Shown here one piece after another: positions 1,469 to 5,765 of a DNA stretch of 7,099 nucleotides. The DNA comes from a virus (Duplodnaviria > Heunggongvirae > Uroviricota > Caudoviricetes). Under the pieces are notes generated by a model. It was given only the letters and a program-made list of their open reading frames with translations. It had not been told where the DNA came from and did not search any database. Location of the stretch: IMG/VR virus record IMGVR_UViG_2541047432_000025; one strand, written 5' to 3'. A program made the translations under genes and the position numbers. Every line of letters starts with the position of its first letter. Within the stretch, counting starts at the first letter, position 1.

Positions 1469-1887
1469 TTCTCAATCTCTCGATGGCGCAGTGCAGCAGA
1501 TGCCAGTTGTTCAAGCTAGCACGCAAATTGTAAACCAGAATGCCAGGAAAAAACAAAACCCGCCGAAGCTGGTTGTGTGCGGTTGCGTTGAAGTCTCCTA
1601 GCCAAAGAGTAGCGGTGACCACTCCCCGCCGATAATCTTAGTTGTTTAATTTCGTAAGCTAACTAGGCTAAAAGCTCTCTGTTGTCTGCCTGTTGTACAA
1701 TTAACAAAATGAACAACGAACTAGATATACCAACGCCAGAATGGTGCAACAAATCCCAAACAACACAGCAATGCAACAATAACATATGTTATTTTCCTCT
1801 CACGGGATTCAGTCCTGAATTCTCATAAAGCTAATCTTTTTTTAAAAACATACTGTTAGATCACATGCACTTTCTTTCTTAACATCG

Positions 1888-1915
1888 TTGACTTCGCATG
1901 CGAAGCGTTTAAAAT
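1888..1915 (+). promoter_or_regulatory. Sigma70-type promoter for the GHKL-ATPase operon, with a palindromic candidate operator in the spacer
   Basis: -35 TTGACT (1888-1893), 16-nt spacer, -10 TAAAAT (1910-1915). The spacer holds the perfect 14-bp palindrome CTTCGCATGCGAAG (1892-1905). An A/T tract lies upstream near 1830-1850. The ATG at 1968 is preceded by a weak GAGAG Shine-Dalgarno. Confidence 0.5.
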
Positions 1916-1967
1916 CAACAATTTGCACTTAAGGTATTTATTTTCCCAAACACATAGAGAGTAAATT

Positions 1968-3359
1968 ATGACTGAGAACACGACTCCAACAGCAGACTTT
2001 AGTCCTAGTAAAAGATTTTTTGTAAGTATGCTAACTCGAGATATCGACTTAAACGATGCCATACTTGATCTGCTTGATAACTGCGTCGATGGGGCTTTAC
2101 GTACAATAAAAGACACAAAAAAAACTTCAAAACCATATGAAGGATTTTATGCGAAACTTACGATTAATAAAGATGTCTTTATTATAGAAGACAATTGCGG
2201 AGGTATCCCTAAAAGCTTCCGAGAATATGCTTTTAAAATGGGACGACCCCATCAAAAAGAAGAAGAAAATGAAGGCACCGTTGGCGTCTATGGTATTGGT
2301 ATGAAAAGAGCCATTTTTAAAATGGGTAGAGATTGCTCAATACAATCGAATAATCCCGATGGCGCATTCACTGTAGATATAACACCTGATTGGATCGATG
2401 GTGATGGTTGGAAAATACCGATGCACGAGAGTGACTATGATAACAAAAATCCAACAGGCACAACTATAGAGATAAAAAAACTCCATTCTAATGTGGCACA
2501 AAAATTTAATGAGAGCACATATCTTACTGATCTCTTTTTACAGATAAAACACTCATTGTCATTTATTATTCAAAAAGGATTTAAAATAGAATTAAATGGA
2601 GTTGTTGTTGAACATAATCCGATTAACATCATAACTGATCATTCTAAAATAGAACCATACATATATAAAGCTAAAATAGACGATGTTGATATCGATTTAG
2701 TTGTTGGCTTCTATAAAAATTTAGAAGATGACAATGATGATGTTTTAGAAAAAAGGAGTTCTGATGATGCTGGATGGACTGTCATTTGCAATGACCGCGT
2801 TGTTCTATATTGTGATAAGACACATCTCACAGGTTGGGGCTTTGCTAATGTACCAAGGTTTCATACCCAATTTATAGCAATTTCTGGGGTTGTTCGCTTT
2901 ACCAGTAAAAACCCAGAAAAATTACCAATAACAACAACGAAACGAGGTGTCGATCTTAGTTCTACATTGTACAATGATGTACGAAATAAAATGATTGAAG
3001 GGATGATGCATTTTATTCGATTCACCAATCAGTGGAAAGGTGAGCATCTTGAAGAAGGGAAAAAATTACTTAAGTCAGCTCAGTCACATGAAGCTCAATC
3101 TTTATTTGAAATTACCCCACAATCAACTCCAGAAGATAAAAAAAATAACTGGTCCAACCCTAATAGAAACAAAAATGAGTGGCGATATACACCTAAGCTG
3201 CCTACCCCAGTAAAAAAAAGCTCTACTGTACGAATAATCTTCACCAGAGAGAAAGAAGATGTTAAAATTTTATCTAAATATTTCTTTGGACATGAAGATG
3301 CTAGCGCTTCTGATGTGGGGATGCAATGCTTTGATACGGTGATTGAAGAGGTGAAGTGA
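1968..3359 (+). CDS. GHKL (Bergerat-fold, MutL/MORC-like) ATPase domain protein, 463 aa
   Basis: N-box DLLDNCVDGA (D34-x3-N38-x2-D41, nt about 2067-2096), G1 box IEDNCGGIP (nt 2190-2207), G2 box GVYGIGMKRA (nt 2283-2300) and a GTTIEI motif about 50 aa later, in canonical GHKL order. The C-terminal 260 aa or so has no motif I recognise. Stop TGA at 3357-3359 overlaps the next start. Confidence 0.85.
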   Translation: MTENTTPTADFSPSKRFFVSMLTRDIDLNDAILDLLDNCVDGALRTIKDTKKTSKPYEGFYAKLTINKDVFIIEDNCGGIPKSFREYAFKMGRPHQKEEENEGTVGVYGIGMKRAIFKMGRDCSIQSNNPDGAFTVDITPDWIDGDGWKIPMHESDYDNKNPTGTTIEIKKLHSNVAQKFNESTYLTDLFLQIKHSLSFIIQKGFKIELNGVVVEHNPINIITDHSKIEPYIYKAKIDDVDIDLVVGFYKNLEDDNDDVLEKRSSDDAGWTVICNDRVVLYCDKTHLTGWGFANVPRFHTQFIAISGVVRFTSKNPEKLPITTTKRGVDLSSTLYNDVRNKMIEGMMHFIRFTNQWKGEHLEEGKKLLKSAQSHEAQSLFEITPQSTPEDKKNNWSNPNRNKNEWRYTPKLPTPVKKSSTVRIIFTREKEDVKILSKYFFGHEDASASDVGMQCFDTVIEEVK

Positions 3360-4348
3360 TGTCTGGACAATACATTCCCTATCACTTAAGGCATAATAAG
3401 TCTATTGATAGAGAGATTTTTCTCGAAAGCCTAAACCTCTTAAGCAAAAGACTAAATATTCAAGAATATACATATATAGGTTTTGGTGGTCCGATGCTTG
3501 AAGATTTTAGAATCATGCATAATCGTATCGCTCTTTCTGATATGATTTCTCTCGAAGAACAAGAGTCTACTCACATCAGACAAAAATATAATTTGCCTTA
3601 TAATTGTATTGATTGTAAGCTAATATCAGCTCATGACTTTATTCTTGATTATAGTTTTTCTAAACCATCAATAACATGGTTAGACTATGCCTCCCCGAAA
3701 AAAATACAAACGGATCTAGATGATATACACTTACTAAGTACTAAAGTAAGCTCTTTTGATATTTTGAAGGTCACCTTCCCCATAAATCCTAGTTCTTATT
3801 ACCAACGTAGAGTTGGAGAAAGTTTAGATATTTTTAAAGAAGCTTTTATTAATTCATTAAAATCATTGCTTGGGAAAAAGTATCTTGATTTTAATCTTCA
3901 GATATCAAATGCAGATCTTTCAGATCGTAAGATTAAAGCTCTTTTAATACGAATTATTACAAACGCTTTTAGATCAGCAATAGAACGTGGTCTTTCAGGA
4001 CGTAAGGATAAGATTCAGTATTACCCATTATCCTTAAATCAATATAATGATGGCAGTCATACCATGTTGACAATATCAGGTTTTTTCTCCTCAGAACAAG
4101 AATATATAGAGTTATCTAAGGCATGCGACCTTTCTAACTGGCAATTTTATTCAACAAATTGGGAAGACGTGCAAGAAATAGCAATACCAACACTAACAAT
4201 TAAAGAAAAGATAAATTTAGATAGTAAACTGCCTGATAAAGAAGCATATCAGGCAGCCGCTGAAGAGTTCTCTTTAAACGAAAATGAACGGGATAACTAT
4301 TATAAATACTATAGGTTATACCCTAACTTCCAAAGAATTATGGTTTAA
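3359..4348 (+). CDS. Hypothetical protein, translationally coupled partner of the GHKL ATPase (329 aa from ATG 3359; ORF track lists GTG at 3356)
   Basis: ATG at 3359 overlaps the upstream TGA (TGATG), with GAGGTG Shine-Dalgarno at 3347-3352. Uninterrupted 330-codon frame, K/I/L/S-rich as expected for an AT-rich gene. No catalytic motif identified by eye. Confidence 0.8.
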   Translation: MSGQYIPYHLRHNKSIDREIFLESLNLLSKRLNIQEYTYIGFGGPMLEDFRIMHNRIALSDMISLEEQESTHIRQKYNLPYNCIDCKLISAHDFILDYSFSKPSITWLDYASPKKIQTDLDDIHLLSTKVSSFDILKVTFPINPSSYYQRRVGESLDIFKEAFINSLKSLLGKKYLDFNLQISNADLSDRKIKALLIRIITNAFRSAIERGLSGRKDKIQYYPLSLNQYNDGSHTMLTISGFFSSEQEYIELSKACDLSNWQFYSTNWEDVQEIAIPTLTIKEKINLDSKLPDKEAYQAAAEEFSLNENERDNYYKYYRLYPNFQRIMV

Positions 4349-5467
4349 ATATTCGGGCTGTACTCTTTTATTTAATAAATTGTACAGCCCCTTTAATATA
4401 TATTCAGCAACTATTGGTGACACGCTATTTCCTATTTGTCTGAAACTATGCCATTTAGTTACATGAAAGCGAAACCAATCAGGGAAGCCTTGTAATCTAG
4501 CAGCTTCTCTTGGTGTAATCACTCTTGGATGATAAGGGTGGATCGGCCTGACGGCTTGAAAGCTTCCTTTATCTCTAGCGGTTCCCGCCCTTAAAGTCGG
4601 GCAAAAACCATTTGGATCTAATCTTGTAGATCTTGAAATTTTATCAGTTTCCCCAAAAGATAAGGAAGCATAACGCTCTTGGACGATTTTGCTATGTAAT
4701 GTTCCGGTACATCCAGATATGATATTATTTTTTAACTTAGCGATCGATTCTGTATCACCAACATTCCGAGGGATCTGCCCCCATAATTTTTCATAAAATC
4801 CCCCTTTTCGATCTTTTTTAATTGTTCGCCAACTCTCAGAGTCTGATTGCCAATTGGCATCGATAATATCTGGTAATCCATACAAAGCATCTTTTACAGT
4901 AACCGGATCAATCATTTTAGGCATAAATACTTCATCTGAAATATCAAGCTTCAATGATTTTTTTACACCGATAAAAAAATATCTAGTTCGAATAGTTGGA
5001 GCACCATAATCAGATGCTTTTACCTTGATGGGATCAAGAATATCATAATCACCGCTAACCAAATTAAATGCTTTATTTCTAATGCCAGAATATTTCTCTT
5101 GCATAATACCTGGAACATTTTCTGCCAAAAAGAATAATGGCTGTAATTCTGATACTAAACGGTAGAAATGCATGTAAAGCTGATTCCTGCTATCATCAGG
5201 ATTCCCCTTGCCTATTGAACTAAATCCTTGGCACGGAGGACCGCCAATAATACCATCTATGGGCATATCGTTTTTAAAAAAACCCTTAATTATTTCTGCA
5301 TTTAGTAAAGAAACATCTTCTTGGACGTGCAAACTTCTTGGAAAATTAATTGCGTGAGTATTAATAGCATGTTGATCAATTTCAACTGCCATTTTAACAT
5401 CAAATCCAGCACGTGCAGCACCAAGACTTAGACCTCCAACGCCAGAAAACAAATCTATTACATTCAT
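4316..5467 (-). CDS. DNA cytosine-5 methyltransferase, Dcm-family (383 aa)
   Basis: Canonical m5C-MTase motifs in order: I DLFSGVGG (FxGxGG), IV GGPPCQGFS with catalytic Cys79 (nt 5233..5231), VI FLAENVPG (ENV), VIII-like APTIRTRYFFIG, IX ITPREAARLQGFPDWFRF, X GNSVSP. A variable target-recognition region of about 150 aa lies between VIII and IX. The 3' end overlaps the partner gene by 33 bp. Confidence 0.9.
   Translation of the reverse strand: MNVIDLFSGVGGLSLGAARAGFDVKMAVEIDQHAINTHAINFPRSLHVQEDVSLLNAEIIKGFFKNDMPIDGIIGGPPCQGFSSIGKGNPDDSRNQLYMHFYRLVSELQPLFFLAENVPGIMQEKYSGIRNKAFNLVSGDYDILDPIKVKASDYGAPTIRTRYFFIGVKKSLKLDISDEVFMPKMIDPVTVKDALYGLPDIIDANWQSDSESWRTIKKDRKGGFYEKLWGQIPRNVGDTESIAKLKNNIISGCTGTLHSKIVQERYASLSFGETDKISRSTRLDPNGFCPTLRAGTARDKGSFQAVRPIHPYHPRVITPREAARLQGFPDWFRFHVTKWHSFRQIGNSVSPIVAEYILKGLYNLLNKRVQPEYLNHNSLEVRV
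4355..4390 (+). terminator. Possible stem-loop terminator for the ATPase-partner operon, embedded in the 3' coding end of the convergent methyltransferase
   Basis: GGGCTGTAC (4355-4363) pairs with GTACAGCCC (4382-4390) as a 9-bp stem around an AT-rich 18-nt loop, 7 nt after the partner stop codon. The downstream run CTTTAATATATATT is only moderately T-rich. Confidence 0.25.
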
Positions 5468-5499
5468 ATAGTTGCAACGTCTCTTATTAGTTTCTATGT

Positions 5500-5529
5500 A
5501 TTATAACACAACTGTTCTTGATGTTTTAA
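5500..5529 (-). promoter_or_regulatory. Putative extended -10 promoter for the methyltransferase
   Basis: On the minus strand TGTTATAAT (plus coordinates 5508..5500) is an extended -10 with a consensus TATAAT; a weak -35 (TAAAAC/TTAAAA) lies 17-18 nt upstream. It sits about 33 nt upstream of the MTase ATG at 5467. The 8-bp palindrome GTTGCAAC (5471-5478) is in the leader. Confidence 0.4.
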
Positions 5530-5729
5530 CCCCATAAGATAACCTCATAAAGGCTATCCCTTGAAAATACCGGATCGCATAAATTTAATCTTTCAAAACT
5601 ACTTGTCTATTAATCGAGCAATTTAAGGTTGTTTTAGTCATGTCGATACCGACATAGTTAACTAAACCCATTTCATCGTCCAACAAATGGGGGTAATACA
5701 CTTTGATTTATAGTCGGGTGGGTTTTTCT

Positions 5730-5765
5730 CTATCTGCCTTTGGTGTTCATGCCCAAGGCAGATAG
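5730..5765. repeat. Imperfect inverted repeat (stem-loop) in the spacer between cargo and phage genes
   Basis: CTATCTGCCTTTGG (5730-5743) and CCAAGGCAGATAG (5753-5765) form a stem of about 12-13 bp with one bulge around a 9-nt loop. There is no U-tract on either strand, so it is not a classical intrinsic terminator. Confidence 0.3.

Follow-up and report, generated by a model that had tools for sequence, protein, structure and literature searches.

A prophage-borne MORC-type GHKL ATPase with an invariant aspartate at the general-base position, linked to a methyltransferase-fold partner and a DNA cytosine methylase

The window analysed here, a stretch of 7,099 nucleotides of viral DNA (IMG/VR record IMGVR_UViG_2541047432_000025), carries a gene for a GHKL ATPase, which is followed by a gene for a partner protein with a methyltransferase fold and, on the opposite strand, by a gene for a C5 DNA methylase (Table 1). 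The ATPase belongs to a family that falls within the structural definition of the MORC proteins, including their signature motif, and in which the place of the general-base glutamate is taken by aspartate (Asp34) in every member compared. The reading that we favour, tentatively and at a little short of even weight, is that the ATPase forms the sensing and effector half of an ATP-dependent, restriction-modification-like immunity module, carried as a moron by a prophage of enterohaemorrhagic Escherichia coli (EHEC).

The assignment of the protein to the GHKL ATPases is secure. The Pfam model HATPase_c_3 matches residues 28-132 with 37.5 bits (cut-off 25), and the motif I asparagine, the G1 box, the G2 box and the fold all agree with it. 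Conservation was analysed in a set of 192 non-redundant sequences of the family, which covers many bacterial phyla and one archaeon and has a mean column identity of about 54%. Residues D34, D37, N38, C39 and D41 of motif I, D75, N76, C77, G78 and G79 of the G1 box, and G106, G109, G111, K113 and R114 of the ATP lid are identical in all 192. Since the mean identity of the set is so much lower, the conservation of the site is far beyond chance. A first-pass annotation of this DNA, made by reading the sequence, had described a GHKL protein with a G1 box DNCGG and an aspartate in place of the catalytic glutamate, and had proposed that homologues be aligned to see whether this aspartate is conserved. 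All three descriptions are borne out, and the G1 box (residues 75-79) has the same sequence throughout the set.

In GyrB, MutL, Hsp90 and MORC proteins motif I has the form E-x3-N, and it is this glutamate that the family lacks, position 34 being Asp in 192/192 sequences. We compared 25 family sequences in one alignment with MORC3 and MutL (the G1-G2 stretch of the MORC3 sequence used agrees with PDB entry 6o1e). MORC3 E35 and MutL E29 both land on D34, and MORC3 N39 and MutL N33 on N38, which is the predicted Mg2+ ligand of motif I. A misregistered motif, with a conventional glutamate aligning elsewhere, was the error that the first-pass annotation had allowed for; it was rejected on the strength of this alignment, and helix 1 contains no invariant Glu at any other position. 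Asp34 is thus a real hallmark of the family, in the correct register and under strong selection.

The pattern D-[LI]-[LVI]-D-N is also kept outside the main set, in a sister family of 605-608 residues, in the second, divergent ATPase copy of a Dehalococcoidia locus (L073) and in the Pf-phage and Microvirga homologues (32-38% identity). Genes of the sister GHKL family likewise adjoin C5 methylases (L006, 10672-12498, minus strand; L037, 10499-12316, plus strand). Their products read YDLVDNSID and FDLIDNSID in motif I and have a DNC-x-G box, the MORC motif and an LPWNTAK lysine loop; their C-terminal region is longer and shows a weak match to DUF4145.

Loss of the glutamate might have produced a hydrolysis-dead pseudo-ATPase, that is, an ATP-binding scaffold or sensor without turnover. 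The canonical base is indeed missing in 192/192 members, and its replacement by Ala or Gln abolishes hydrolysis in MutL, Hsp90, GyrB and MORC. However, the replacement found in nature is always Asp and never a non-carboxylate, Lys325 and the lid glycines, which are important for hydrolysis and closure, are invariant, and GyrB carrying the E42D substitution reportedly retains a reduced ATPase activity. A protein without turnover is thus very unlikely. As all nucleotide-site residues and K325 are under purifying selection (192/192), a working nucleotide switch is implied.

Two further features of the N-terminal half deserve mention. By analogy with other GHKL ATPases, residues 1-27 may form a dimer-swapped strap. 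In addition, four cysteines are invariant: C39 (nucleotides 2082-2084), C77 (2196-2198), C274 (2787-2789) and C454 (3327-3329). C39 and C77, in the pairs N38-C39 and N76-C77, flank the nucleotide pocket. A metal or redox role of the four cysteines is possible.

The region downstream of the ATP site, residues 200-463, had been described as some 260 residues with no nameable motif. This holds for residues 333-463 and fails for residues of about 203-332, which are a conventional MORC-type transducer. In the fold search 270-312 residues align with GHKL plus S5 modules; alignments of this length need both domains, so both a Bergerat domain and an S5 transducer are present. Weak fold matches to GHMP kinases and to ribosomal protein uS9 are consistent with the S5 fold. 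According to Iyer et al. (2008; PMC2292703), the S5 motif GhXhhpXXRhl defines the MORCs and separates them from other GHKL proteins, and the MORC family combines a GHKL domain with a following S5 domain that has a conserved basic residue; the present family shows this arrangement. A regular expression of the motif finds 190 of the 192 members, where chance would give 0.026 matches in a protein of such length. The sister proteins and MORC3 (GIMMYHRNRLI) match it as well; the positional equivalence of these matches is given by the order of elements and not by a residue-level structural alignment. The invariant K325, in the sequence LPxTTTKRG, sits where MORC3 has LKPTHNKQDF. MutL K307 and GyrB K337 are phosphate-sensing lysines, and by analogy with them K325 is predicted to be the basic residue through which the transducer senses phosphate, and would contact the gamma-phosphate.

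A search of the PDB with the ATPase sequence (phmmer) gave no match, and the family profile found only MORC3 and MORC4 there, marginally (E 0.024-0.19). Against single MutL and Hsp90 sequences, hhalign aligned only the G1 or G2 boxes, with non-significant scores. The eukaryotic MORC3, MORC2 and SMCHD1 modules (PDB 5ix1, 5of9 and 6mw7) are about 15% identical to the ATPase, which, unlike them, has no CW zinc finger, coiled coil or hinge, lies in a bacterial operon, and has Asp34 where MORC3 has Glu35. The N-terminal domain of MutL (LN40) shows no sequence similarity to it beyond the motifs and has different partner proteins. The C-terminal dimerisation and endonuclease domain of MutL is not found in the ATPase sequence, and neither is its DQHA(x)2E(x)4E endonuclease motif.

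The uncharacterised region thus shrinks to a tail of about 130 residues (333-463). It is modelled at a predicted local distance difference test score (pLDDT) of 72-93 and contains a conserved FTNxWK helix, an LPxP sequence within a linker that is flexible and basic and, at its end, a VGxxCF helix; its invariant residues are G345, F349, T353, W356, K357, L411, P412, G451, C454 and F455. The tail has no Pfam match at E<=1, and its profile finds none among the PDB sequences at E<=10. No nuclease or DNA-binding motif is recognisable among the invariant residues, and the tail has none of the restriction endonuclease (RE), TIR or HxH features of the C-terminal domains of paraMORC1-5. The first-pass annotation had considered the C-terminal half a candidate for the DNA-recognition or nuclease function; for the tail this proposal is unsupported. 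The most likely explanation is that the tail serves as a partner or dimerisation interface rather than as a nuclease.

The 7.1-kb window is a section of a lambdoid or Rac-like prophage of EHEC (prophage Sp10/CP-933R). In the O157:H7 strain PA20 the cassette of ATPase, partner and methylase has the replication genes on one side and the DUF1367, YbcO and Q-like (DUF1133) late-regulation genes on the other, a position that corresponds to the prophage nin region. The G+C content is 31-38% over positions of about 1750-5750 and about 47-52% in the window flanks. Because this low-GC island sits inside prophage DNA of higher G+C content, the three genes are acquired cargo. The genes that flank the island code for DUF1367, YbcO and DUF1133 (Q-like) proteins on the left and for Ead/Ea22-like and DUF551 proteins on the right. 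The central 4 kb of the window occur as a 100% identical copy in 173 of 5,426 complete E. coli genomes, each time in the chromosome. The cassette is reported to be specific to EHEC O157:H7 lineage I (PMC1890555; the match to the locus tags of that study is probable). RefSeq annotates the same ORF for the ATPase, as WP_000138556, an 'ATP-binding protein'.

The stop codon of the ATPase gene and the start codon of the partner gene overlap in the sequence TGATG, within GTGATG at 3356-3361. RefSeq and homologues support a start of the partner at ATG 3359, which disfavours the in-frame GTG at 3356. The 3' ends of the convergent partner and methylase genes overlap by 33 nucleotides (4316-4348), with no terminator-like hairpin between them.

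The gene order was analysed in the best 80 of 447 confirmed ATPase loci, with one genome per species. The partner gene lies directly downstream of the ATPase gene in 78 of the 80, in many phyla and one archaeon, and the two are translationally coupled in nearly all genomes. A C5 methylase gene adjoins the pair in 68 loci, upstream on the same strand in 52, which therefore have the order methylase-ATPase-partner on one strand, downstream and convergent in 8, as in the window, and downstream on the same strand in the remaining 8; a linked cognate DNA methyltransferase, as in restriction-modification systems, is thus the usual companion. The methylase of the window has all the Pfam and TIGR motifs of C5 enzymes and is equal to PDB entry 3G7U. 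About 50 cassette methylases are 50-57% identical to this E. coli enzyme over their full length. As this divergence matches that of the ATPases (43-47%), the cassette travels as a unit. A gene for Vsr (PF03852) accompanies it in 33/80 loci; in 19 of these the Vsr gene comes fourth in the operon, right after the partner and on the same strand. Vsr is the sole recurrent extra gene in the clustering of neighbours, and its recurrence in the cassette indicates that the methylase makes 5-methylcytosine (5mC) in vivo. HsdR-like genes were found in few loci only, and neither a superfamily-II helicase nor an endonuclease of the RE fold or of the HNH, HKD or TIR type recurs among the linked genes.

Several loci depart from the common order. 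In two cyanobacteria (L050, 9633-10928; L063, 9550-10890) the Methyltransf_35 partner is absent and the C5 methylase directly follows the ATPase. In three Nostocales genomes (L009, L010 and L016) a methylase-less pair occupies a syntenic site flanked by NDH-1 antiporter-like (Proton_antipo) genes, and this suggests that it has been stably inherited in the vertical line there. The Dehalococcoidia locus (L073, 7965-13204) has two divergent ATPase-partner pairs arranged tail to tail, with a Vsr gene between them.

The recurrence of Vsr admits another explanation of the cassette, in which the GHKL-S5 protein is a dedicated accessory of very-short-patch repair that stimulates nicking by the Vsr enzyme of the same cassette at T:G mismatches arising from 5mC deamination, as MutL does, and the partner is a reader of the lesion or site. 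In E. coli, Vsr is stimulated by MutL, a relation also discussed in PMC2292703, and the position of the Vsr gene in the 19 operons fits such a role. On the other hand, the cassette lacks Vsr in 47/80 loci, in the window and in phage PfAC20, and 12 loci have neither methylase nor Vsr. In the DISARM operon described below the pair is coupled to an MmeI-like N6-adenine methylase, for which there is no deamination problem, and Vsr is in any case common beside ordinary m5C restriction-modification systems. A repair accessory is therefore quite improbable.

The partner is the second methyltransferase-fold protein of the cassette. It has the Rossmann fold, motif I, the acid after beta2 and motif IV of class-I S-adenosylmethionine (SAM) methyltransferases, and its SAM pocket is intact, with G42, G44, G45, E67 and D110 all invariant. 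Its nearest folds are N-methyltransferases of RNA bases, with catechol O-methyltransferases scoring slightly lower. An hhalign comparison with RsmD was non-significant and in the wrong register, so the two are related at the fold level only. Similarity to class-I methyltransferases of the RsmD or Trm1 type is not detectable in sequence: these have a DPPF/Y motif where the partner has WLDY, and, unlike them, the partner has an extra invariant N-terminal segment YHxRxNKxxxR and a C-terminal helical domain.

The intact SAM pocket, together with the absence of any nuclease from the cassette, would also fit an epigenetic writer without restriction, in which the ATPase would use ATP to load the partner or to make it processive, and the partner sets a second methyl mark, for example on an exocyclic amine, beside 5mC. 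Such a two-mark modification or anti-restriction module would suit carriage by temperate phages, among which protective methylases are common, and the location of the pair directly after the methylase gene in the DISARM operon. However, an ATPase is superfluous for a simple protective methylase, the pair is strictly kept as a unit in the chromosomes of many phyla, including loci without any other methylase, and the slot that it fills in the order methylase-X-Y-Vsr is the usual place of restriction genes. We consider a pure writer complex unlikely.

A likeness in gene context also exists to the HEF_HK/Response_reg_2 pairs, which are known from computation only (Bellieny-Rabelo et al. 2021, PMC8011034) and in which a HATPase_c_3 protein with a small linked partner occurs near C5 methylase, Vsr and HNH_2 genes. 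For those pairs phosphorylation of the partner by the GHKL protein has been proposed, and GHKL kinases often lack the glutamate. The ATPase of the window, however, has an S5 transducer with a lysine finger and no DHp or His domain, and the fold of its partner is that of a methyltransferase and not of a receiver. Neither PF19191 nor PF19192 (HEF_HK and Response_reg_2) matches the ATPase, the partner or the sister GHKL proteins. A two-component-like kinase pair is, hence, extremely unlikely.

The reading of the cassette as a restriction-modification-like immune system is based on the obligatory coupling to the partner, the near-obligatory linkage to a DNA methylase and the order methylase-X-Y-Vsr, and it draws further support from the convergent genes with overlapping 3' ends, an arrangement found in many restriction-modification systems, from the carriage on prophages and from the presence of the pair within other defence operons. 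The ATPase itself, with its complete Bergerat ATP site, its S5 transducer with the MORC signature and its invariant Lys, is presumably a dimeric, ATP-gated clamp like those of MORC and MutL. In Iyer et al. (2008, PMC2292703), restriction-modification roles are predicted for MORC and paraMORC ATPases from similar contexts.

In such an immune system the methylase would protect self DNA, and the partner would engage DNA and read the presence of the cognate methylase mark at the site. Binding of ATP would dimerise the N-terminal domains of the ATPase into a MORC/MutL-type clamp on DNA. With the shorter Asp as the base, hydrolysis would be kept and would probably be slower, giving a long-lived closed state. 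Incoming unmarked DNA would then be trapped or inactivated. The effector step might reside in an unrecognised catalytic site, in a recruited host nuclease or Vsr, or in blocking by the clamp itself. In a more speculative version, to which we attach little weight, the system is free of nucleases altogether: a slow, Asp-base clamp of the MORC type, loaded by a base-flipping partner on DNA without the 5-methylcytosine mark, would entrap, compact or hyper-methylate this DNA and silence it with no cutting.

At 90% identity the ATPase family falls into more than 5,430 protein clusters, with at least 447 confirmed loci among 185,579 species genomes. In deposited phage genomes and plasmids the ATPase is rare, the protein search having found it in 1 phage and 2 plasmids. 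The filamentous Pseudomonas phage PfAC20, a Pf phage, carries the trio of ATPase, partner and C5 methylase at its left end (L088, 280-3711). The trio adjoins the repressor and excisionase genes, and a second, shorter cytosine methylase gene is located further on. In the Microvirga terrae plasmid pR24_2 (L089, 1-13401) the pair lies inside a class-1 DISARM operon with the order drmD, MmeI-like methylase, ATPase, partner, drmA, DUF1998, and the MmeI-like and ATPase genes, which overlap by 4 nucleotides, are translationally coupled. One genome has the cassette between hsdS and hsdR, and some neighbours are Type I HsdR-like, Type IIG, PARIS, Mza or MADS components.

A number of observations weigh against an immune function. 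Neither the ATPase nor the partner contains a nuclease domain according to Pfam, NCBIfam, PADLOC and the fold search, and there is none in the universally linked genes. In 12/80 loci, mostly cyanobacterial, the pair has no adjacent methylase, and classical restriction would there need an unlinked one. The flanking genes are mostly of the ordinary housekeeping type, so that the enrichment in defence islands appears modest. No family of PADLOC-DB 2.0.0 matches the ATPase or the partner; the methylase matches the generic Type II, DruM and DrmMII models only. The partner is called an 'O-methyltransferase' in Pfam and RefSeq, a name that derives from PF20553 alone. Finally, the literature searched contained no functional study of the cassette and no experimental data on any member.

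The same literature contained no specific computational description of the ATPase-partner cassette. Of the known groups, the prokaryotic MORC and paraMORC proteins resemble it most in the features compared: PMC2292703 describes GHKL plus S5 transducer proteins, the MORC motif, operons with C5 methylases and the Vsr superfamily, and a patchy, laterally mobile spread. By the description given there, the family treated here differs in the invariant Asp, the obligatory partner with a methyltransferase fold and the family-specific helical tail. The MORC and paraMORC operons of that description contain superfamily-II helicases and RE, HNH, HKD or TIR components, none of which is in this cassette, and paraMORC1-5 are described there as lacking the MORC S5 motif, which the present family has. 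The family can be seen as a variation on the MORC/paraMORC restriction-modification theme. BREX and DISARM, which are poor in nucleases, resemble the proposed immune system in that self DNA is marked by a methylase, ATPases are needed and a classical restriction endonuclease is not obligatory. In contrast to them, the cassette has only three or four genes and no homologues of PglZ, BrxC, DrmA or DrmB.

Sites that may control the cassette were sought upstream of its genes. Promoter-like sequences precede the ATPase and the methylase (Table 1), and over the region as a whole matches to the promoter consensus are no commoner than in shuffled sequence. A perfect 14-bp palindrome, CTTCGCATGCGAAG, at 1892-1905 falls in the spacer of the promoter-like site of the ATPase and could be an operator or a methylation-sensitive site. 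This palindrome, which contains GCATGC, has no conserved counterpart in the other cassettes, and GCATGC itself shows no clear depletion (142 occurrences, 181 expected). In the Enterobacter cassette (L084, about 7850-7875) there is a different inverted repeat that likewise includes GCATGC. The sequence CGATCG occurs in 9/48 methylase upstream regions of 200 nucleotides, five times as CGATCGAC, against about 2.3 expected, an excess that is weak after multiple testing; it may be a regulatory or recognition site.

Table 1. Positions of the genes, protein segments and upstream sites in the 7,099-nucleotide window
Feature	Position	Strand	Evidence
Promoter-like TTGACT-16-TAAAAT, ~50 nt upstream of ATPase start	1888..1915	+	Consensus match only
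GHKL ATPase open reading frame (ORF), 463 aa, ATG start, TGA stop	1968..3359	+	ORF list, annotation, Pfam HATPase_c_3, fold
N-terminal strap, aa 1-27 (putative); invariant P13, K15, F17, F18, M21-L-T-R-D-I26	1968..2048	+	Conservation; low pLDDT in monomer model
Motif I (N-box) D34-L-L-D-N38-C-V-D41-G-A, aa 34-43	2067..2096	+	Direct translation, alignment, conservation
G1 box D75-N-C-G-G-I80, aa 75-80; D75 = adenine-contacting Asp	2190..2207	+	Translation, MORC3 DNGNGM alignment, conservation
G2 box / ATP lid T104-V-G-V-Y-G-I-G-M-K-R114	2277..2309	+	Conservation, MORC3 VGLYGNG alignment
S5-fold transducer, aa ~203-332	2574..2963	+	Fold search
MORC signature GhXhhpXXRhl = G269-WTVICND-R277-VV, aa 269-279	2772..2804	+	Regular expression and translation
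L319-P-I-T-T-T-K325-R-G-V-D329, predicted phosphate-sensing lysine loop of S5 domain	2922..2954	+	Translation; K325 192/192
Family-specific, mostly helical tail, aa 333-463	2964..3356	+	Conservation, structure model; no Pfam/PDB relative
Partner gene, 329 aa, Methyltransf_35 class-I Rossmann methyltransferase fold	3359..4348	+	Pfam E 2e-89, fold
C5 DNA methylase, 383 aa	4316..5467	-	ORF list, Pfam/TIGR motifs, PDB 3G7U
Promoter-like TTAAAA-18-TATAAT (TG-extended), upstream of methylase start	5500..5529	-	Consensus match only

The family is large, and its members carry only the annotation 'ATP-binding protein'. Among bacterial groups it is the closest to eukaryotic MORC in fold and signature motif, and its genetic wiring to DNA cytosine methylation is the same functional link as that of plant and animal MORCs. 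The invariant change of Glu to Asp amounts to a natural experiment in tuning the lifetime of a GHKL clamp. As an immune system, the cassette would be a compact, restriction-modification-like set of three or four genes, with two methyltransferase-fold proteins and no recognisable nuclease, and one would have to ask by what means it neutralises foreign DNA. Should the nuclease-free silencing version be true, the connection that eukaryotes show between MORC, DNA methylation and the silencing of invaders would have a bacterial antecedent here. As prophage cargo of the EHEC O157:H7 lineage I, the cassette could influence phage and plasmid traffic in this pathogen.

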